This document shows, piece by piece, positions 5,676-18,270 of a stretch of DNA of 20,232 bases. The stretch lies in IMG/VR virus record IMGVR_UViG_2728369554_000020; one strand, 5' to 3'. A model generated the notes under the pieces. That model was not told where the DNA came from and did not search any database. It saw only the letters and a list, made by a program, of their open reading frames with translations. Origin of the DNA: a virus (lineage: Duplodnaviria > Heunggongvirae > Uroviricota > Caudoviricetes). Every line of letters begins with the position of its first letter. Positions within the stretch are counted from its first letter, which is position 1. The position numbers were made by a program, and so were the translations under genes.

Positions 5676-6734
5676 TCATGCTTTCCACTTCAGGACACCC
5701 GAATTTCTCGCGTGCATTAAAAAACGAATCAGCAACAACAGCTGGCTGCCGTGTTTTTCTTCAAAATCTTTTACCCCGGCGTGTAGTTCGTTATGGCATT
5801 TACGGCACAGCGGAATAACAAACAAATCGTCAGCCTTTGTCCCCATTCCTCCCAGTCCATGACCAATGATGTGATGCGGATCATCTGCCTGAGCGCCACA
5901 CGTCATGCATTTCTGCGTTTTTACCCAGCGCGTGTATACGGGCATCTCTTCCCGTTGTGGTTTCTGGCGCTGGAGATACTGAGCAGGTGCCTCCGGATCA
6001 ACGGCGATGCTTACTACCGCCTTTTCCTGTGGTGGGGTTTGTTGCTGGTGGGTGTGAGGCAACGGCACAAGATTTTTTGTGCGCTGCTTCAATATGCTGG
6101 TTGCGGTCTGCTCTCCCGGTACGATGTCGCTTTCGCGGTAAACCGAGCGGATTTTTTCCGCACGCAACCCCAGAGAACGACGTAATACTGCCTCCGGTAG
6201 CGCGTCCGCCACCTGATTGCAGACCGCCCACCAGGATAATTCAGCCAGCGATAATTCCCGTTCCTGTGTACCGTTCATTGCATGACGTATGACGTCAATC
6301 ATCCAGGCTGTCAGATTTTGTTGAGCAAGCTGCCCGAGTGATTCGGATGTCTGGTCACGCAGCTGGTTGTCGCAGTGCCAGCACAACACCATTGCGCCGG
6401 TACCGTAACGATGTATGACGATTTCACTGTGATGATAGTCACCATGAGGCCACTGGCAGGATTTGACATGACGCAACAGCCAGTCAGACAGTGCCCCAGC
6501 GCCGCCAGCAGCACGAATCACCCGCTCATCGCTGAAAAATGGCAGTAATGATTTATCCTCCGCCAGCGGCTGGCGAACGGCAGGGACGACTCCGGATGGC
6601 AGGCCGCACATGCTTTTCGGTTCCGGCTCCACCAGCACTCGAGGATTGTGAAATACCTGCATGGATTCACGACCTGGCTTAAGGACCACCAGCCCGAGTT
6701 CCGGTACCAGAACAGGTCGAAGTAATACCCGCAC
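5676..6734 (-). CDS. DUF968-like protein with C-terminal Cys/His zinc-binding motif (YdfU-like)
   Basis: GTG start at 6734 with GGAGG 4 nt upstream; C-terminal CMTCGAQADDPHHIIGHGLGG...LCRKCHNELH motif. Confidence 0.7.
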   Translation of the reverse strand: MRVLLRPVLVPELGLVVLKPGRESMQVFHNPRVLVEPEPKSMCGLPSGVVPAVRQPLAEDKSLLPFFSDERVIRAAGGAGALSDWLLRHVKSCQWPHGDYHHSEIVIHRYGTGAMVLCWHCDNQLRDQTSESLGQLAQQNLTAWMIDVIRHAMNGTQERELSLAELSWWAVCNQVADALPEAVLRRSLGLRAEKIRSVYRESDIVPGEQTATSILKQRTKNLVPLPHTHQQQTPPQEKAVVSIAVDPEAPAQYLQRQKPQREEMPVYTRWVKTQKCMTCGAQADDPHHIIGHGLGGMGTKADDLFVIPLCRKCHNELHAGVKDFEEKHGSQLLLLIRFLMHARNSGVLKWKA

Positions 6735-6735
6735 G

Positions 6736-7008
6736 TTACCTCCAGATCCGTTGCTGGAATGTGCGGGACGGACGCGGTGGGCGTTCGGAGTAAGGAAGCC
6801 TGACGTAGATTATCCAGTGACGATAATCGAGGGTGAGGGCTTTCCTAAACTCATACCCGCGTCTGCGGTAGTTCTGAATCAGCCATTCGGCCTGTTCTTC
6901 AGTGCAGGGGTCATGCTGATACCAGTCATATTTGAATGTGTGAGAACGCCGCCCGTATCTGCTGGCAGGGGCGGCATCAGAATTGTTAATTTTCTTGTAA
7001 TGCACCAC
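6736..7008 (-). CDS. hypothetical phage protein (90 aa)
   Basis: GTG start at 7008 with GAGGA 7 nt upstream; stop TAA 1 nt before the DUF968 start (coupled). Confidence 0.45.
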   Translation of the reverse strand: MVHYKKINNSDAAPASRYGRRSHTFKYDWYQHDPCTEEQAEWLIQNYRRRGYEFRKALTLDYRHWIIYVRLPYSERPPRPSRTFQQRIWR

Positions 7009-7074
7009 TACTATCCTCGTAATGGTGCGACAGACGCCAGTTGTTCAGGCTGGCTTTAACTACAACATTATAAT

Positions 7075-7269
7075 CTAGTCTTTCTTAATGCTGAAGTGAC
7101 TGACCGAATCCGCATGCGATTCTTTGGTGATCAGAATAACATCGGATGGCAATGGCATTACGATAAACTCACCATTCTCAAGAACTATTACTTCATAATT
7201 ACCTGGTATAGAAAGCGCAGCAATTAATTCCTTATCGTTCATAACCAAAATCCCGTGAACTTTAAACAC
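7075..7269 (-). CDS. hypothetical small protein (64 aa; start uncertain)
   Basis: ORF with GTG at 7269 immediately after an AAGGGGAG motif, or ATG at 7242 with no RBS; no recognisable motif. Confidence 0.35.
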   Translation of the reverse strand: MFKVHGILVMNDKELIAALSIPGNYEVIVLENGEFIVMPLPSDVILITKESHADSVSHFSIKKD

Positions 7270-7400
7270 CTCCCCTTAAGGGGACCATCCTTATTCTCCC
7301 TGCGCGCCAATCAAGTAATGAGATTCTATTTCCCCCGTAATTAGCCTCAAGAACAACAAATCACAAAAACACAAAAAGCCTGTTTGATTAAAAATAATCG

Positions 7401-7427
7401 TAACAAAAAACCCGCCGAAGCGGGTTA
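7401..7427 (-). terminator. intrinsic terminator downstream of the hok-like gene
   Basis: Minus-strand hairpin AACCCGCTTCGGCGGGTT followed by TTTTTTGTTA. Confidence 0.5.
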
Positions 7428-7494
7428 AGTGCGGGTGCGTTGAGGATGCCTGACACATCAGAGGTGGCGAGGGATTTCTCCCCCGCCAGGTCTC

Positions 7495-7680
7495 TTACTC
7501 CTCAGATTCGTAAGCTGTGAAGACAGCGACCTCCGTCTGGCCGGTTCGGATTCGTACCTCGCAGAGGTCTTTCCTCGTTACCAGNNNNNNNNNNNNNNNN
7601 NNNNNNNNNNNNNNNNNNNNNNNNNNNNNNNNNNNNNNNNNNNNNNNNNNNGCGATTAACATCGCCTTTTGCTGCTTCAT
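7495..7680 (-). CDS. hok: Hok/Gef-family type I toxin, interrupted by a run of N
   Basis: N-terminal MKQQKAMLI and C-terminal LVTRKDLCEVRIRTGQTEVAVFTAYESEE flank the N run and match the Hok family as I recall it; ATG at 7680 with AAGGAG upstream. Confidence 0.6.
   Translation of the reverse strand: MKQQKAMLIXXXXXXXXXXXXXXXXXXXXXXXLVTRKDLCEVRIRTGQTEVAVFTAYESEE
7575..7651. other. run of 77 N (masked or unresolved sequence) inside the hok-like gene
   Basis: Literal n characters at 7575-7651. Confidence 1.
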
Positions 7681-8018
7681 AGCCTGCTTCTCCTTGCCTT
7701 TCGGCACGTAAGAGGCTAACCTACGTTTGTGTAGCATAGATTGGGCCTCAGATTAATGTTAAGCGTCTTGCCGGACGCGTAATGTTAACTGGGGCTTTTC
7801 TCTGTCTGCCTTACAGTGGCATGCCCGAGGCAGACAGCCTCAAGCACCCGCAACAATCTTACCGACACCGATAAGAAAACGCTATTTTTTATTGCCAGAA
7901 CCTTCTGCCCAGGCTAATGTATCCGCGTCAGAACGGCGCAATGCGCTCGCCTGAGATACGTTTACTTGTCATTGGTGGCAACAGATAACGGCAATTGTTG
8001 TTTCTGTTTGTTTCCTTC

Positions 8019-8052
8019 AAAAACCCCGGACCGTCAATCCGGGGTTTTTGTT
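8019..8052. terminator. bidirectional intrinsic terminator
   Basis: Hairpin CCCCGGA-ccgtcaa-TCCGGGG flanked by an A-run on one side and a T-run on the other; downstream of the 288-aa gene. Confidence 0.55.
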
Positions 8053-8134
8053 TGTTATCCCCAGCGGCAAATCGAATACACCACCAGCGCCACCGCCATT
8101 GCGATTCCTGCCGTTGTAAATGCCTCAGGCCAGG

Positions 8135-9001
8135 TCATCGTAAAACATCCTCCACACCAACCAGTCCGTTCTGCTTCAGATATTCCATCGCCTTATCAGG
8201 TAGATTGCTTGATTTATTGACGCTTTTTAACGAACTGGCTAATCGCTTAACCAACATTGTTAATTCGTTAACCTGTTTTCCGGATGCTTGTGGATTGTCA
8301 GTTTTACCAGAAGTGGCGGTACAGTCGGCGTTCCCACTCTTCTCCTCCTGCGACGGTTTTGCTGCAATCTGACTGGCATGTTTGTTAATGGTAACGATCA
8401 GCTCTTGCTCAGCCTCATCAAGACAATCACTGATACCTCGCCTGTCACCGTCAAAATCATCGAAATCGGCGCGAACCTTGGCAAACTTCAGGATTGCAGA
8501 CAACACCTCACCAGGAATTACCGGAGAGTTGGTTGACGTTTCCGAGATTTTCCGAAAATTATTGGTTGACGAATCCTTGTTTTCCCGAAAGCTTCCTGAC
8601 TGAAGCATGGCTTCGCGGCAATCGTTCCATCCTTCAGCATAATCACTATACGCAAGAGGCCAACCTCTTATGTATTCACGCGGCAACTTATCAGGCACTA
8701 CCAGCGCTGGCGATGCTGCATAAAGTGGTGTTATTTCTGCCCGAAAGTCACCTACTTTATGCAGTCGCACCCACCGTTTGGCTTCTGCTTTGTCAGAATA
8801 CATAGCGGTGAACGTATTATATTCATGGTCAATTTGCGTGAAGGTTGCCTTCCACGCCACCGGCTCAGCTTCCAGCGATGCCAGTGCAATTTTGAATAAC
8901 TCACCCTCTATCCGTGCCATCCCTGAATTGGGGTGACATTTCGTAATCGCTATTTTTAATTTGGCCTCTTCGATTAATTGTTCTTTGGTTAATTCAGCCA
9001 T
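8135..9001 (-). CDS. hypothetical protein (288 aa), uncharacterised
   Basis: Long ORF with ATG at 9001 and an in-frame stop just upstream; own upstream region of 131 bp with two hairpins; followed by the bidirectional terminator. No catalytic motif recognised. Confidence 0.6.
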   Translation of the reverse strand: MAELTKEQLIEEAKLKIAITKCHPNSGMARIEGELFKIALASLEAEPVAWKATFTQIDHEYNTFTAMYSDKAEAKRWVRLHKVGDFRAEITPLYAASPALVVPDKLPREYIRGWPLAYSDYAEGWNDCREAMLQSGSFRENKDSSTNNFRKISETSTNSPVIPGEVLSAILKFAKVRADFDDFDGDRRGISDCLDEAEQELIVTINKHASQIAAKPSQEEKSGNADCTATSGKTDNPQASGKQVNELTMLVKRLASSLKSVNKSSNLPDKAMEYLKQNGLVGVEDVLR

Positions 9002-10336: not shown

Positions 10337-11083
10337 TTACTTCACAACCCTTAAATGACTGACATTTGAACGCCAGCTCTCCCAGTTAAAATTCACCCAG
10401 CGACCACCGTTCATGGTCATGCGGTCCATCACGCGCTCACCAAGCAGCGTATTCATTGCCGTATGGTTCAGGTTCGTCAGCATCCCGACGCTGTGCATCG
10501 AGGCTGTTCTGCGATCGACTATCTGGTTCAGTGTGACCTGTTCGTTACGCGTATCCCGCTGCATACCAATTTCATCCAGGACAAGCAGGTCAACTTCACA
10601 CAACCCCTGCAAAAATTTTTCGCCCGAGTTTTTGTTGTCGTAGTTGCCGTGTAACGCCAGCATCACATCCGCCACCGTCACCACAATCACGCTGCGACCT
10701 TTCGCCAGAAGATGGTTGCCAATGGCTGCTGCCAGATGATTCTTTCCGGTACCCGGCTTACCGCTGAACACGAAATTTGTGCATCCGGTCATCATTTCTT
10801 CCGCGATGGATTTTGCCTGGCTCAGCGCGTGGCGTTGGCCATCGTTCTTCACCTGGTAATTCGCAAACGAACACTTCTGGTGCAACAGTTGGATACCGGA
10901 ACGCTTCATAATTTTCTCCACCCGGATCTGGCGATTCTGGCGGTTAATTTCCTCACTACGCTTTCGCCCTTCTGCAAGCTGCCACTCTCGCCACTCGTCC
11001 ACTGTCCGGTACGGCGCGGTTACATGCTGCGGGGCCAGCTTACGGATGCGTTCAAGAACACCACCTGCCGCAATATTTTTCAT
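10337..11083 (-). CDS. DnaC-like helicase loader (AAA+ ATPase)
   Basis: 248 aa; Walker A GKPGTGKNHLAAA and Walker B LLVLDEIG; follows the initiator gene. Confidence 0.85.
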   Translation of the reverse strand: MKNIAAGGVLERIRKLAPQHVTAPYRTVDEWREWQLAEGRKRSEEINRQNRQIRVEKIMKRSGIQLLHQKCSFANYQVKNDGQRHALSQAKSIAEEMMTGCTNFVFSGKPGTGKNHLAAAIGNHLLAKGRSVIVVTVADVMLALHGNYDNKNSGEKFLQGLCEVDLLVLDEIGMQRDTRNEQVTLNQIVDRRTASMHSVGMLTNLNHTAMNTLLGERVMDRMTMNGGRWVNFNWESWRSNVSHLRVVK

Positions 11084-11089
11084 AACCCG

Positions 11090-12199
11090 TTACCCCCTGA
11101 ATCCCGGCGGAATTTCGGTGTCCGGTTCAGAAATGTGATTCACACAACGCTGGTTGTTCGTGCCGCTTACCGGGAGCAACCAGGGGTTTTCAAAATTCCG
11201 GTCCGGTCCAAAAAACGTCGTCGCTCGCTGAACAAATTCCGTTCCCGCTTTCCCGGTAGCAGCCAGGTATCTTGTGTAACGCCTCACACCATCCAGCATG
11301 GCCTCTGGTGGCACCCCCTCGCGCAATCTGGCCTTCCAGGCACTGAATGCGGATTTCTTCGGGTTTGCCCCGGCACGCAACGGGTATTCCCGCCAGACCT
11401 GTTCGAACACATCCGGATAATCCACTCGTCCCACAGGCCGCCCGGTGTTTTCCGGGACTACCCGATCGGCTTCCCGCTGAATGGCGGAATCGGCTTCAGG
11501 CTGCTGCAGTTGGTGTGATTGCTCCGACCCTGCGGTCATCGCCTGCTGCACAGCGCCCGAATCGGCTTTCAGCGCATACGCCGAATCGGCTTCCGGTGTC
11601 GTGCCTGCTGGCTGACCAGAATTTACGGTCTGAACATCCCCTGCCTGGTTCATGGTGTTTTTTTCGCCATGAACCATAGTGTTTTTGTCCTGTTCCTGTT
11701 CTTTCTCCTGCTCCTGTTCTTGGCTTCGAAGCCCCTTAAAAGCCCCTTCGAAGCCCCTTACCGAATTTCGGCTATTATTCCGCCTCACATCCAGATGGAA
11801 ATCCGTTTTATATCTGTCGTAAAACGCTGACAGAAAAGCGTTTTCAGGTAATGATGCATACTCATTCCTGACACCTGCACAACGGTTATCGCCGGGCTTC
11901 AACGTTTCCCCAACCTGCCAGGCTGCCATTTCATGGACCCAGACCATCTCTGCATCATGGTCATAGCTACAAAAACCAGCTTCAACAGCCCTTTTAAGCC
12001 CCTTTGAAGCCCCTTCCAGACCAAGCCCGGTTTCATGAGCAAGGTATAAAACTGGCAGGTAATACAAACCCAGCATATTTGCGTGAGGGGATGTCATCAG
12101 GTAAAAAGCAACAACTTGCGCTTCTGCACCCGCCTTTCTAAGTTCTCTCCCCGTTTCTCCCAGCCAGAATCGCGGAGAAACTTTTGCGTAATCACGCAT
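11090..12199 (-). CDS. replication initiator / replisome organiser (lambda O analogue, YdaU-like)
   Basis: ATG at 12199 preceded by GAGGT; the track start at 12310 has no RBS. Central acidic Q/E-rich linker and repeated EADSA segments; gene contains iteron-like DNA repeats. Confidence 0.7.
   Translation of the reverse strand: MRDYAKVSPRFWLGETGRELRKAGAEAQVVAFYLMTSPHANMLGLYYLPVLYLAHETGLGLEGASKGLKRAVEAGFCSYDHDAEMVWVHEMAAWQVGETLKPGDNRCAGVRNEYASLPENAFLSAFYDRYKTDFHLDVRRNNSRNSVRGFEGAFKGLRSQEQEQEKEQEQDKNTMVHGEKNTMNQAGDVQTVNSGQPAGTTPEADSAYALKADSGAVQQAMTAGSEQSHQLQQPEADSAIQREADRVVPENTGRPVGRVDYPDVFEQVWREYPLRAGANPKKSAFSAWKARLREGVPPEAMLDGVRRYTRYLAATGKAGTEFVQRATTFFGPDRNFENPWLLPVSGTNNQRCVNHISEPDTEIPPGFRG
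11727..11759. repeat. three tandem 11-bp iteron-like repeats (cgAAGCCCCTT / aaAAGCCCCTT / cgAAGCCCCTT)
   Basis: Core AAGCCCCTT at 11729, 11740 and 11751. Confidence 0.8.
11987..12015. repeat. second cluster of the same 11-bp period repeat (AGCCCTTTT / AAGCCCCTT / AAGCCCCTT)
   Basis: Copies at about 11987, 11996 and 12007, roughly 250 bp from the first cluster, inside the same gene. Confidence 0.75.
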
Positions 12200-12277
12200 G
12201 GCTACCTCATCTGGTGCCGAACCTTCCTCCGGATATAATCTGTGGTTCCCAATCGACAGAACCAGAGGAGGTTCGAC

Positions 12278-12733
12278 ATGTATTTTTTGAAAAGCCTTTA
12301 TCAGGCTCATGTATTAAATGTTGCAGCAACAAACCGCTGGTGTAACAGCCCCGAAATGCTCCCGGATTACAGAGCCTGGCTGCGCGCCGAAACATACCTT
12401 CGTCTCGACATATTGATTAGCGAACTTCAAAAAGAGACTGCATCCATTCATAACCTTCAGGGTATCGACGCTGTTCGCATTCTGGTATCGCGCCATAGTG
12501 CTCTCTCAATAATTGAAGTGCGTCATCTCTCTTTTTCTGAACTGATTTTCTTGCTTCAACCAGCTCTGGAATCAGCGAATATCCCACAGGAAGTGATCCA
12601 ATACCCACCTCATGTTGACGAGCAGTTACAAGATGTGCCATACAACCAGCGTGCTGGATTGACTCCCTGCTCAGAGGCTGAATGGGATCACTCTCTGCTG
12701 AAGAAATACCAAGATTTGTATAATCCTCAATAA
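12278..12733 (+). CDS. alternative antisense ORF (151 aa) with strong RBS
   Basis: ATG at 12278 preceded by GGAGG (12266-12270) with 7-nt spacer; overlaps the minus-strand ORF for 317 nt. Hand-counted GC by codon position is about 63/32/40%. Confidence 0.3.
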   Translation: MYFLKSLYQAHVLNVAATNRWCNSPEMLPDYRAWLRAETYLRLDILISELQKETASIHNLQGIDAVRILVSRHSALSIIEVRHLSFSELIFLLQPALESANIPQEVIQYPPHVDEQLQDVPYNQRAGLTPCSEAEWDHSLLKKYQDLYNPQ

Positions 12734-12926
12734 GCCCGGCACACGCTTCTGCATCAGCCAGCTTTATTCTGGTTTCCTTGCGCTGTTCTCTGGCTGACAA
12801 ACGCCAGAGCAGCGCATTAGCTTTATGTATCAACCACTCTGCCAGCTCCACATCAGATAAACCGCCACGCCAGATGTGCGGACTGTTTTCGTAAACGCTC
12901 AGTGTCAATTTTTTGTCATTACTCAT
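12417..12926 (-). CDS. hypothetical protein (about 170 aa) between the YdaT-like and initiator genes
   Basis: Co-oriented with the operon; ATG at 12926 ten nt after the upstream stop; weak RBS. In the overlap with the plus-strand ORF its frame has G at codon position 1 in about 35% of codons (hand count). Confidence 0.45.
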   Translation of the reverse strand: MSNDKKLTLSVYENSPHIWRGGLSDVELAEWLIHKANALLWRLSAREQRKETRIKLADAEACAGLIEDYTNLGISSAESDPIQPLSRESIQHAGCMAHLVTARQHEVGIGSLPVGYSLIPELVEARKSVQKKRDDALQLLREHYGAIPECEQRRYPEGYEWMQSLFEVR

Positions 12927-12939
12927 ATTTATTACCCAA

Positions 12940-13365
12940 TTAATGCACAGCCAGAGTGTTTCCTGCCGGGCCACCACGATTCATCTGGTTGAAACCAGCA
13001 ATCGCCACTGCGACAAAATCATCAGCGTCTCTCACCAGTCGTTCCCGCGTCTCCACCAGTTCCCGAAACCAGGCTGAACTGTGGCTGCGCATTCGGGCCA
13101 CCAGCAGAGGTGGCATTGCTTTTTCGATCGCTGGTAACAACGCCTGAATTTTTTCAACAGCATCAGGGGTGTCTTTCTCTACCCAGCGGAAAATTTTCTG
13201 GGTATTACGAGCCAGGGCTTCCGGATGGCTGTCGTCATACAGTTCAGGGAACGTCATACCCAATTCGAAATACGCTTTGGTAATTTTCGCAGCCGGTACT
13301 TTTTCGCCGTCCGGATGCGCCCAGGCATTCATCGCCATGCGGATGTGTTCATGCCTGATTTTCAT
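12940..13365 (-). CDS. YdaT-like protein (141 aa) in the cII-equivalent position
   Basis: ATG at 13365 with GGAG 8 nt upstream; N-terminal MKIRHEHI resembles my recollection of Rac YdaT; overlaps the Cro-like gene end. Confidence 0.6.
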   Translation of the reverse strand: MKIRHEHIRMAMNAWAHPDGEKVPAAKITKAYFELGMTFPELYDDSHPEALARNTQKIFRWVEKDTPDAVEKIQALLPAIEKAMPPLLVARMRSHSSAWFRELVETRERLVRDADDFVAVAIAGFNQMNRGGPAGNTLAVH

Positions 13366-15792: not shown

Positions 15793-18270
15793 ATGAGCAC
15801 TGATAAAGAAGAATTTGCATTATATTGTGAAGCAAAAAATGACAAAGTCAGAAAACGCCTTGGAATTAAAGGTGGTTTTTACTGGACTACAGCAAAAAAA
15901 TTATCTGTTGCCATCTCCCGCTGCATTACCGCAATGGATGACAACGATTATGATGAAGACGACTTTAAAAAACCCGTCCGCGTCCATTTACCCGTTGTGA
16001 ATGACCTTCCTCCGGAAGGCGTGTTTGATACCGAATTCTGCAACCGATACGAAAAAGGCGGGGAAGATGGTATCACAATGGTACTTATCGCGCCCTCGCC
16101 CTCTGTTCAGGATAAACCAGCCAGCACTGACAATACCAACGTCAACGGCGAAGACATGGCTGAGATTGAGGAGAACATGCTCCTGCCGGTTTCAGGTCAG
16201 GAACTGCCCATTCGCTGGCTTGCTCAACACGGCAGCGAAAAACCAGTAACGCACGTTTCGCGGGGCGAACTGCGCGCATTACATAACGCACAGGATGAAA
16301 AACTTCCCGCCGTTACCGCGCTGGCCATCTCAAATAAAGCAGCGCAACTCGAACCGCTGGAGATTCGCGATCTCCACAAACTGGTGCGAGACACTGACAA
16401 AGTTTTCCCCGCCCCCGTAAATTCGGACCTGGGACTGATAACCTCTTTTATCGAAGCATACCTGGACGCCGACTACACCGATCGCGGTCTGCTGACAAAA
16501 GAGTGGATGAAAGGAAATCGTGTTTCGCGTATCACCCGCACGGCTTCCGGTGCTAATGCCGGTGGCGGGAACAAAACCGATCGCAATCCGAATTTAGTAC
16601 ACACCTTCGATACGCTGGATGTGGAGATTGCAGCAGCCACACTTCCGATGGATTTTAATATTTATGAAATTCCGGGCAGCGTTTATCGTCGCGCAAAAGA
16701 AATCGTCCTGAAAAGAGAAAGTCCGTTCAAAGAATGGTCCGCAGCACTTCGCGCAACCCCGGGTATTCTGGATTATTCCCGCGCCGCGAATTTTGCACTT
16801 ATCCGGAGCGCTCACCCTGAACTTTATCTCTACCCGGGACGCCTTCAGGAGTATATCAACGCCCACTTAACGGAGACTGATCACGAGAACCCCAGCAAAG
16901 AAACTCTCGCTGCTGCACGACATACACCGGAAAAAGATATCCTGGAAGAAGTTAACCGCGAACTGGCTGCTGAACGCGAAACAGAAGAAGAAAAAAATAA
17001 TGAGGAAAAATCACAACCGTCTGACGCAATGGCAGATGAACAGGCAACGACTGAAGCAATGGGACAGGATACAACTGAACATCGCCAGGACACACAATCG
17101 CTGGATACTCAGGCACAGATAAATCCGGTTAATCAGGTAAAAGTTACCGCTGGCGAAGTAAACAAAATTATGCAGGCAGCCAATATCAACCAGCCTGATG
17201 CCGACAAAATACTGGCAGTCCATCGCGGTGAGTTCGTTGACGGAATTAGCGACCCGAATGATCCGAAATGGGTTAAGGGGATTGAAACCCGCGATTCTGT
17301 GAACCAGAACCAGCCCGAATCGGAACAAAACGACCAGAAAGCGGAACAAAACAGCCCAAATGCGTTACAAAACAGCCCAAATGCGTTACAAAACGAGCCA
17401 GAAACGAAACAGCCTGAACCAGAAGAGCAACAAGAACCGGAAAAAGTCTGCACCACCTGCGGTCAGACCGGCGGCGGCAACTGTCCTGACTGTGGCGCGG
17501 TGATGGGCGACGCAACATACCAGGAAACATTCGATGACGAGAATCAGGTTGAAGTTCGGGAAGACGATTCGGAGGAAATGGAAGGCGCTGAACATCCACA
17601 CAAGGAGAATGCTGGCAGCGCTCAGGACCACGCCAGCGATAGTGAAACTGGCGAGACGGCAAATCCCTTAATTGCGGTGAACGGTCATCACGTTATCACA
17701 TCCACCAGCAGAGTATGGAATCACCTGTCGGTCGACCTTGAAACCATGGGAAAAAATCCCGATGCCCCGATTATCTCAATAGGTGCAATATTTTTCGATC
17801 CGCAAACCGGAGATATGGGGCCGGAATTTAGTAAGACCATCGATATAGATACTGCTGGCGGAGTCATTGATCGTGACACCATTAAGTGGTGGCTTAAGCA
17901 ATCACGTGAGGCGCAATCTGCCATTCTGACCGACGAAATCCCGTTAGATGATGCACTGCTGCAATTGCGGGAATTTATAGATGAAAACTCCGGTGGATTT
18001 TTTGTTCAGGTCTGGGGAAATGGAGCCAGCTTCGACAACGTGATTTTACGCCGTTCATACGTACGACAGGAGATCCCCTGCCCGTGGCGCTACCACAACG
18101 ATCGCGATGTACGCACAATCGTTGAGCTGGGGAAAGCCATAGACTTCGATGCCAGAACGGCTATTCCATTCGAAGGTGAGCGCCATAATGCACTTGATGA
18201 CGCCCGTTACCAGGCAAAATACGTTTCAGCTATCTGGCAAAAACTGATCCCGAATCAGGCTGATTTTTAA
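15793..18270 (+). CDS. large exodeoxyribonuclease VIII-like protein with C-terminal DEDDh 3'-5' exonuclease domain
   Basis: 825 aa; GAGGT upstream of ATG at 15793; C-terminal motifs DLETMG, WGNGASFDNV and HNALDDARYQAKY; central acidic low-complexity linker with a CxxC...CxxC zinc-ribbon-like motif (CTTCGQTGGGNCPDCG). Confidence 0.8.
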   Translation: MSTDKEEFALYCEAKNDKVRKRLGIKGGFYWTTAKKLSVAISRCITAMDDNDYDEDDFKKPVRVHLPVVNDLPPEGVFDTEFCNRYEKGGEDGITMVLIAPSPSVQDKPASTDNTNVNGEDMAEIEENMLLPVSGQELPIRWLAQHGSEKPVTHVSRGELRALHNAQDEKLPAVTALAISNKAAQLEPLEIRDLHKLVRDTDKVFPAPVNSDLGLITSFIEAYLDADYTDRGLLTKEWMKGNRVSRITRTASGANAGGGNKTDRNPNLVHTFDTLDVEIAAATLPMDFNIYEIPGSVYRRAKEIVLKRESPFKEWSAALRATPGILDYSRAANFALIRSAHPELYLYPGRLQEYINAHLTETDHENPSKETLAAARHTPEKDILEEVNRELAAERETEEEKNNEEKSQPSDAMADEQATTEAMGQDTTEHRQDTQSLDTQAQINPVNQVKVTAGEVNKIMQAANINQPDADKILAVHRGEFVDGISDPNDPKWVKGIETRDSVNQNQPESEQNDQKAEQNSPNALQNSPNALQNEPETKQPEPEEQQEPEKVCTTCGQTGGGNCPDCGAVMGDATYQETFDDENQVEVREDDSEEMEGAEHPHKENAGSAQDHASDSETGETANPLIAVNGHHVITSTSRVWNHLSVDLETMGKNPDAPIISIGAIFFDPQTGDMGPEFSKTIDIDTAGGVIDRDTIKWWLKQSREAQSAILTDEIPLDDALLQLREFIDENSGGFFVQVWGNGASFDNVILRRSYVRQEIPCPWRYHNDRDVRTIVELGKAIDFDARTAIPFEGERHNALDDARYQAKYVSAIWQKLIPNQADF
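17351..17392 (+). repeat. perfect tandem duplication of a 21-bp unit (ACAGCCCAAATGCGTTACAAA x2)
   Basis: Copies at 17351-17371 and 17372-17392, in frame (QNSPNAL repeated) within the large exonuclease gene. Confidence 0.9.

Follow-up and report, generated by a model that had tools for sequence, protein, structure and literature searches.

Repeated sites that lie within an initiator gene and serve as its origin of replication form a classical arrangement, already known. The origin of lambda, ori-lambda, lies within O, at 39034-39160, and consists of four iterons of 18 bp with an AT-rich tract of 38 bp after them (PMC3349717; PMC6022878), and in SPP1 gp38 binds direct repeats of oriL within gene 38, beside an AT-rich unwinding element (PMC6316719). 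Here we describe a replication initiator gene at 11090..12199 (minus strand; 369 amino acids) in a 20,232-nucleotide stretch of viral DNA (IMG/VR record IMGVR_UViG_2728369554_000020; the whole stretch is referred to below as the window), within which lie two clusters of a 9-mer repeated with an 11-bp period. We propose that these clusters are probably iterons bound by the winged-helix N-terminal domain (N-domain) predicted for the initiator, forming a prophage origin together with a neighboring tract of hexamer repeats and a hairpin. The new elements are an initiator family for which no Pfam model exists; a two-cluster site of 9-mers with 11-bp period, one cluster of which falls on the codons of the predicted recognition helix; and, further, a frame-independent hexamer tract and a hairpin conserved in position.

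The locus resembles that of lambda in several respects: the initiator gene contains the origin, a candidate in the present case, at the point where an N-terminal DNA-binding domain meets a C-terminal recruitment domain; repeated sites, again candidates here, precede a tract that melts easily in lambda and is a candidate unwinding region here; a loader gene is found immediately downstream; and the module is part of a lambdoid early-right operon, after cro/cII-like genes. Unlike lambda O, however, the initiator shows neither sequence homology to O nor a match to Pfam Phage_rep_O, so that the term "O-like" applied to the gene in the initial annotation is apt by analogy and fails by homology. The sites also differ, being 9-mers of 11-bp period in two clusters 256 bp apart as opposed to a single array of four hyphenated palindromes, each of 18 bp (PMC3349717; PMC6022878), as do the loader (DnaC-like here, P in lambda) and the tract (hexamers with a GC fraction of 0.45 here, 38 bp of high AT content in lambda). 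With the SPP1 oriL/gp38 (G38P) system the locus shares direct repeats in the initiator's own gene, the SPP1 initiator working with a loader/helicase pair (PMC6316719); unlike SPP1, it yields no significant match to Pfam Phage_rep_org_N, its repeats differ in sequence and spacing, and no second origin equivalent to oriR was seen in the window. Similarity to Escherichia coli DnaT covers the last ~70-90 residues, the tail ISEPDTEIPPGFRG among them, whereas the N-terminal two thirds are unrelated to it, a resemblance of domains and not of orthologues. Plasmid iterons are typically ~17-22 bp in length. The initiator, in addition, belongs to none of the sequence families of iteron-binding plasmid initiators (RepA, pi, and the RepA of a multiresistance plasmid, PDB 4pta).

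Phased repeat arrays in the initiator gene

The 9-mer AAGCCCCTT, which reads AAGGGGCTT on the coding strand, occurs in five exact copies in the entire window, all on the plus strand (11729, 11740, 11751, 11996 and 12007) and all confined to 287 bp; no further exact copy was found on either strand of the 20,232 bases. The number expected by chance is 0.12, and none of 100 dinucleotide-preserving shuffles reached five. Because a count permitting one mismatch stands at chance level and is uninformative (6 found, 4.8 expected), the signal comes from the number of exact copies and from the way in which they cluster and keep phase. Cluster A (11729..11759) is made up of three exact copies with a period of 11 bp. 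Cluster B (11985..12015) has the same period and, in the window, the same orientation; it comprises three in-phase 9-mers, a degenerate unit at 11985 (ACAGCCCTT on the plus strand; seven of nine positions matching) and two exact copies of AAGCCCCTT. Tandem Repeats Finder assigned period 11 to 11729-11760 (2.9 copies) and to 11989-12015 (2.5 copies), and a repeat finder paired 11723-11764 with 11979-12020, identifying the clusters as mutual direct repeats 256 bp apart. Six in-phase units are thereby distributed across the two clusters inside 11090-12199, and a degenerate in-phase fourth unit follows cluster A at 11718..11726 (coding strand AAGCCAAGA), where it forms part of a box, CGAAGCCAAGAA. 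The two iteron-like clusters of 11-bp period described in the initial annotation are therefore established, with all five exact positions correct; a sixth copy, which it placed at about 11987, was slightly off, the degenerate unit beginning at 11985.

Since 11 is not divisible by three, the copies of one cluster fall in three reading frames. In cluster A they are read R-G-F / E-G-A / K-G-L (context ...V-R-G-F-E-G-A-F-K-G-L-R-S...), and in cluster B E-G-A / K-G-L / (K)-R-A (context ...L-E-G-A-S-K-G-L-K-R-A...). The earlier statement that the repeats are read as KGL tripeptides consequently describes one copy in each cluster and not the others. Cluster A encodes RGFEGAFKGL (residues ~148-157), within a predicted disordered linker, and cluster B encodes EGASKGL (residues 62-68), at the start of the predicted recognition helix. 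A repeat period that is not a multiple of three suggests a feature maintained at the level of DNA.

The open reading frame (ORF) containing the arrays spans 11090-12310 on the minus strand (406 amino acids), RefSeq and the homologues placing its start at 12199. For the 406-residue product no Pfam-A family was found at E ≤0.01, nor for its distant homologues, and NCBIfam assigned no family to the initiator or to distant relatives. It does match PHROG families annotated as replication initiation or DnaD-like loader (E 1e-144) and, weakly, phrog_6251, "replisome organizer DnaA-like" (E 4.4e-4). An AlphaFold2 model of residues 1-160, built from 41 aligned sequences, has a mean predicted local distance difference test score (pLDDT) of 84, with residues 10-140 mostly above 90. 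Its topology (helix H25-36, strand E45-47, helices H50-57 and H61-73, strands E77-80 and E85-88) is that of a predicted winged helix of order alpha1-beta1-alpha2-alpha3-beta2-beta3, and the modeled domain structurally matches solved winged helix-turn-helix proteins; we take this prediction, for residues 1-~142, as established. The codons of cluster B fall on model helix H61-73, and residues 143-160, around cluster A, have pLDDT values below 50. Following the disordered linker, the last ~70-90 residues constitute a DnaT-like C-terminal domain resembling that of PDB 6aep (profile match, E 3.6e-4); the NCBIfam DnaT model aligned at E 0.0019 with residues 346-369 only, scoring 17.8 bits against a cutoff of 201. 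Phage records sometimes name the initiator gene "primosomal protein I".

Conservation of the motif and its pairing with the N-domain

The Shiga toxin (Stx) phages 75/02 and PhiR5_2 hold the initiator gene at 77% DNA identity. Both retain cluster B as two exact copies in the orientation seen in the window. In cluster A of both, the 9-mer has the orientation opposite to that in the window, its coding strand reading AAGCCCCTTCAGAGCCCCTT, and the peptide encoded is IEAPSEPLSS, as against VRGFEGAFKGLRS in the window; in this cluster the DNA motif is retained and the peptide is not.

More distant loci were identified by protein patterns lying outside the repeats (NMLGLYYL; [EK]AGFCSYD), with one genome taken per species. 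The 40 loci obtained, ranging from 41 to 68% GC, encode N-terminal regions of ~140-160 residues that are 43-66% identical to the query, and their hosts include Enterobacteria, Acinetobacter, Burkholderiales, Steroidobacteraceae, Acidobacteria, Pirellulaceae, an Elusimicrobia metagenome-assembled genome and others. Among the 36 loci covered by motif scoring, the density of exact motifs is 3.84 per kb over the gene's first 600 nt and 0.04 per kb over ~174 kb of flanking sequence, a difference of ~96-fold, and 67 of 78 neighboring motif pairs are spaced by 11 bp. Copies are concentrated at nt ~185/196 (B) and ~440-463 (A) of the homologous genes: no locus is without a copy in the cluster A zone, where 28 have two to five, and 27 have two or three in the cluster B zone. 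The orientation of cluster A, plus in 8 loci, minus in 23 and mixed in 5, sets the peptide encoded, EGASKGL for the plus and EAPSKPL for the minus orientation. Where the initial annotation had raised the prospect that the repeats might not be conserved in homologous initiators, the opposite was thus found, the DNA motif being conserved. In Acinetobacter prophage homologues, two or three extra copies are present in non-coding DNA just upstream of the start codon, over the ribosome-binding site (L008:2460-2500 and L015:2470-2500; likewise in loci L012, L013 and L022).

Codon usage was compared in a codon-threaded alignment of 40 distinct N-domains. Cluster B is specified by the codon string GAA GGG GCT TCN AAG GGG CTT, whose synonymous sites within the motif are near-monomorphic (E62, GAA in 28/30; G63, GGG in 32/33; A64, GCT in 27/33; K66, AAG in 35/35; G67, GGG in 27/29; L68, CTT in 31/40), and the codon for S65, situated on the 2-bp spacer, varies freely. 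Normalized synonymous entropy is 0-0.47 in motif columns and mostly 0.6-1.0 in other conserved columns, which are of mixed composition: G58 is specified by GGC (16), GGA (12), GGG (8) and GGT (4), K6 by AAG (17) and AAA (13), and L59 by six codons. The contrast is not an artefact of relatedness, since all columns share one phylogeny. From this comparison, confined to sequences, we consider it established that purifying selection acts on the motif DNA itself. The repeats are almost certainly functional sites at the level of DNA, and their interpretation as iterons gains support because the DNA motif is more strongly conserved than the protein requires.

A case might be made that the repeats are instead a by-product of a duplicated peptide, EGASKGL, needed by the protein and lacking any function as DNA, given that EGASKGL occurs twice in many enterobacterial homologues and that cluster B is located in a predicted helix of a folded domain. 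Yet the frozen codons (GGG, CTT and GCT) are otherwise uncommon at conserved Gly, Leu and Ala columns within these genes, over a range of 41-68% GC, the copies fall in three frames owing to their 11-bp period, cluster A occupies a disordered segment and encodes EAPSKPL when inverted, and the additional copies upstream of Acinetobacter genes are in non-coding DNA; we regard this explanation as extremely improbable. We think just as little of a role at the level of RNA, in which cluster B (AAGGGGCUU) might pair in the mRNA with a cluster A of inverted orientation (AAGCCCCUU), or the motif might belong to a structured RNA already known. Although the clusters are complementary, and could pair, in the 23 of 36 loci with an inverted cluster A, they are direct repeats, incapable of pairing, in the window and in 8 of 36 loci, and are conserved equally there; a strand-specific RNA signal would not tolerate inversion, and Rfam returned no match at E ≤1 on either strand.

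Phage Tritos and several other E. coli phages carry a C-terminal half ~95% identical to that of the window and a different N-domain. The Tritos gene has no AAGGGGCTT-like site. Its repeats are of the form ATGTCACG(A/C) and make up two clusters, at nt ~136/157 and ~386-430, in positions equivalent to those of the window; they are succeeded by a hexamer-type tract, (GATAAAGATACA)n, and then by the same hairpin as in the window. The 95% identity between the window and Tritos-type phages begins at ~11685, at the end of the hexamer tract. These E. coli initiators, annotated "N-terminal phage replisome organiser", accordingly share the layout of the window, with two clusters in the N-terminal half and a tract of hexamer type following, and differ in having another N-domain and ATGTCACG where the window has AAGGGGCTT. 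In the genes compared, the type of repeat travels with the N-domain and not with the C-terminal domain or the loader. Because Tritos exchanges both repeat and N-domain while sharing the C-terminal half, the two would constitute a specificity pair, and their co-variation, which we consider established among these genes, is as expected of a binding site and its reader. The sites are very probably bound by this initiator.

Elements beside cluster A and the proposed origin

Adjoining cluster A is a tract of hexamer repeats (11680..11721), whose coding strand has the form (CAGGAR)n; the tract is read QEQEQEKEQEQ and was detected by Tandem Repeats Finder with period 6/18. The coding strand of the tract is purine-rich, with an AT skew of -0.64 to -0.70 and the GC fraction of 0.45 given above. 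Among homologues it is usually read QEQEQE, with GTGTGT in Pirellulaceae, AGAGAG in Binatia and RARAGAG in Rhodoferax loci, and related hexamers read QKQK or AVAV are present in others; a strict scan for exact period 6 scored 85 of 121 loci as having none, a result of excessive stringency, the hexamer being still read QE, GT, EK, KQ, AV or AG. The box CGAAGCCAAGAA follows cluster A in almost all homologues, the codons for S159 (AGC in 29/30) and Q160 (CAA in 25/28) being likewise near-uniform. Hexamer copy number varies between close alleles: an IMG/VR copy of the same gene (L078) has one extra CTGTTC, and the tracts of PhiR5_2 and of 75/02 Stx (L001 and L002) differ by one hexamer. In the mean profile of 39 loci, stability within the gene is lowest in two stretches, one on each side of cluster A, from -140 to -60 and from 0 to +60 (z ~+1). 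We consider the tract a candidate unwinding or loading region. A strongly AT-rich unwinding element was not found beside cluster A in the window; the adjacent region, where the initial annotation proposed to look for such an element, is only modestly AT-rich.

The hairpin, a palindrome at 11646..11676, lies ~52 nt after cluster A and consists of a 10-bp perfect stem (12 pairs if G-T is included) with an A-rich loop of 11 nt. Folded as DNA, it has a predicted energy of -9.8 kcal/mol (z -3.2), and PhiR5_2 retains it with a compensating change. Of 39 loci, 11 have a perfect stem of at least 8 bp in the 170 nt that follow cluster A, whereas shuffles predict 0.7 and a control region gave 2. Such hairpins are mostly positioned at +48 to +68 nt (approximately so in L010, L015, L016, L017, L020, L027, L028, L034, L036 and L040), and their sequences are unrelated between lineages.

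Farther into the gene, in the sequence encoding the linker and C-terminal module, G(A)ATCGGCTT, or AAGCCGATTC on the coding strand, recurs four times between 11464 and 11592 (at 11464, 11487, 11559 and 11583), arranged as two pairs with a spacing of 23-24 bp within each. PhiR5_2 retains one copy in another reading frame (GKPIG as opposed to READR), and in Tritos the copies accompany the C-terminal module; they may represent a second class of DNA sites. No DnaA box (TTATCCACA) was present at one mismatch or fewer in 10800-12600, and the four found elsewhere in the window do not exceed chance. Promoter-like and terminator-like signals internal to the gene were at chance level only.

The position of these elements at a junction between modules admits another explanation, in which cluster A, the CGAAGCCAAGAA box and the hexamers are a recombination joint, shared homology between exchangeable modules that phage-phage recombination has kept uniform. 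The C-terminal module is swapped exactly here, the identity with Tritos-type phages starting at ~11685, many different C-terminal domains are found behind the same N-domain, and the hexamer copy number is polymorphic; for the hexamer tract itself the explanation is plausible. It leaves unaccounted for, however, a cluster B with frozen synonymous sites in a folded domain, the strict 11-bp phasing, and the different repeats of Tritos at the same two positions, and the motif is retained even where inverted, an inversion that destroys homology. As an account of the whole arrangement we judge it highly unlikely.

The sites might alternatively be operators of the initiator or of another repressor, acting in autoregulation or copy-number "handcuffing", with initiation taking place elsewhere. 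Iteron-binding initiators such as plasmid Rep proteins commonly autoregulate, the extra Acinetobacter copies overlie the ribosome-binding site upstream of the start codon, and the tract beside cluster A is not strongly AT-rich. In contrast, the copies in the window are all deep in coding sequence and none is near a promoter; the conjunction of a domain-boundary site, a low-complexity tract and a hairpin mirrors the mapped origins of lambda and SPP1; and the replication module showed no second region rich in repeats that could be an origin. Autoregulation constitutes a serious alternative or an additional role, and is compatible with origin function; as the sole function, with the origin elsewhere, we consider it unlikely.

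Several observations nonetheless weigh against interpretation of the locus as an origin. The upstream copies in Acinetobacter suggest that autoregulation may be a role of the sites, in addition to origin function or in its place. The hexamer tract is only moderate in AT content, and three other 40-mers of the gene in the window are less stable. Cluster B is missing from 5 of the 36 distant loci scored, hence two clusters are not obligatory. Finally, the 9-mer hardly changes between initiators that have diverged greatly, among them those of a low-GC subfamily encountered in viral contigs (described below). Such constancy is unusual for iteron-initiator pairs, which normally co-diversify, and allows that a different protein may read the site.

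Taking these considerations together, we regard the site as likely to be the replication origin of the prophage. We infer this activity, which the initial annotation had proposed, from the frozen synonymous sites, the tolerance of the motif to inversion, the linkage of repeat type to the N-domain, the placement of the gene in a replication module, and the origin-like surroundings of cluster A, with their hexamers, local minima of stability and recurrent hairpin. The process we infer would begin with binding of initiator monomers, through their N-domains, to successive 9-mers on one face of the helix at each cluster, the 11-bp phasing of the sites approximating one helical turn. The two clusters, 256 bp apart, would then be bridged or wrapped into a nucleoprotein complex, the low-stability region of hexamer tract and hairpin beside cluster A would open, and host DnaB would be delivered by the DnaT-like C-terminal domain by way of the phage DnaC-like loader encoded just downstream. 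A more speculative extension, which we hold to be doubtful, is that the window represents one copy of a very widespread, undescribed type of phage origin, whose N-domain is found from Proteobacteria to Acidobacteria and Planctomycetes and in low-GC phage contigs. In this type, the DNA encoding the recognition helix (EGASKGL) would itself be an array of binding sites, and (CAGGAR)n with the hairpin would be a dedicated track for melting or helicase loading, possibly, by analogy with DnaA-trios, a trinucleotide-periodic element for single-strand binding. If true, this self-reference would tie the reader to its site and could explain the near-invariance of AAGGGGCTT although the remainder of the protein has diverged so far as to be hard to recognize.

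Prophage setting and breadth of the family

E. coli strain R1 carries, beside potC, a lambdoid prophage to which the window is 100% identical. Among 5,426 complete E. coli genomes, 477, O157:H7 included, have prophages with close alleles. The gene immediately downstream of the initiator gene (10337..11083, minus strand) encodes a DnaC-like helicase loader, its product matching Pfam IstB_IS21 / Bac_DnaA ATPase, PHROG 50 (DnaC-like loader), and NCBIfam PRK12377 (E 1.9e-147) and DnaC (E 1.5e-93); this AAA+ loader is the presumed partner of the initiator's C-terminal domain. Beyond it is a DUF977/Ren-like gene, and upstream of the initiator gene are cII/YdaT-like, cro/YdaS-like and cI-like genes. 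Judged by this gene content, the replication-module context can be taken as established: the window holds the replication module of a lambdoid prophage, with an initiator that is not a homologue of lambda O.

Other features of the window were recorded in passing. Two long, overlapping antisense ORFs occupy 12242-12977, of which probably one is real: the plus-strand ORF 12278-12733, the one annotated in RefSeq, matches the NCBIfam ECs1072 family (E 1e-30), and the minus-strand ORF 12417-12977 matches PHROG 8304 (E 5.5e-120). Were the plus-strand ORF real, it would be convergent with the cro/cII-like operon and located between that operon and the initiator gene. At ~6266-8578, by the annotation of L166, an IS66-family element (tnpA, tnpB, ISEc8 transposase) separates the replication module from the Q/RusA region, and because of this insertion the prophage copy may be defective. 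A 21-bp tandem repeat at 17321-17394 (3.5 copies of CGGAACAAAACAGACCAAAAG), in an exonuclease-like ORF (15793-18270), is unrelated to the iterons.

Interrogation of protein sequences by phmmer with the N-domain alone retrieved 4,113 clusters at 50% identity (E ≤1e-3), 925 of them at E ≤1e-30. Members are usually annotated as "hypothetical" or "DNA-binding protein", and their C-terminal halves differ, many C-terminal domains following the same N-domain. The downstream partner is a DnaC-like loader in the window and in one Acinetobacter locus, and a DnaB-like helicase in six distant loci; these are the two classical types of lambdoid module. A DNA-pattern scan of viral contigs for triple arrays yielded at least 120 loci, 108 of which, among the matches listed, have the N-domain by profile; the scan was seeded with the motif and is biased, a reservation to be set beside those against the origin, and it shows spread, not frequency. 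Most of the remaining loci belong to a very diverged low-GC initiator subfamily, barely detected by the profile, that keeps the 9-mer, the 11-bp phasing, two clusters and a hexamer tract. In most loci recorded for this subfamily (L113, L129, L142 and L164, as against L106, L080 and L046) the first cluster is near codons 15-25 (for example FVRGLQGAYKGLY), outside the recognition-helix codons, and the tracts are composed of other hexamers (GGTAAT, GAAAAG or AGTAAT).

GenBank phage records with the domain number only 22 and include no model phage; family members are present in Shiga-toxin phages 75/02 and POCJ13 and in phages of Acinetobacter, Klebsiella and Ralstonia. NZ_CP069825, the one plasmid-labelled near relative examined and a small one, was considered as an autonomous replicon built on this module and rejected, the sequence being a linear, mis-binned chromosomal/prophage contig. 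In literature full text the 9-mer appeared only in unrelated papers, and the double-iteron strings, EGASKGL, EAPSKPL and SQEQEQEQ were not found; general literature searches returned only work on lambda/Stx O-type and SPP1 systems.

For this large family without a Pfam model, the locus offers a concrete, candidate pair of origin and initiator, and the motif array provides a simple sequence signature by which replication origins of such prophages could be annotated; a possible use is interference with these phages by means of origin decoys. With its frozen synonymous sites, its repeats read in three frames and its flips of orientation, the locus also represents an unusually clear natural case of a second, DNA-level code within protein-coding sequence.

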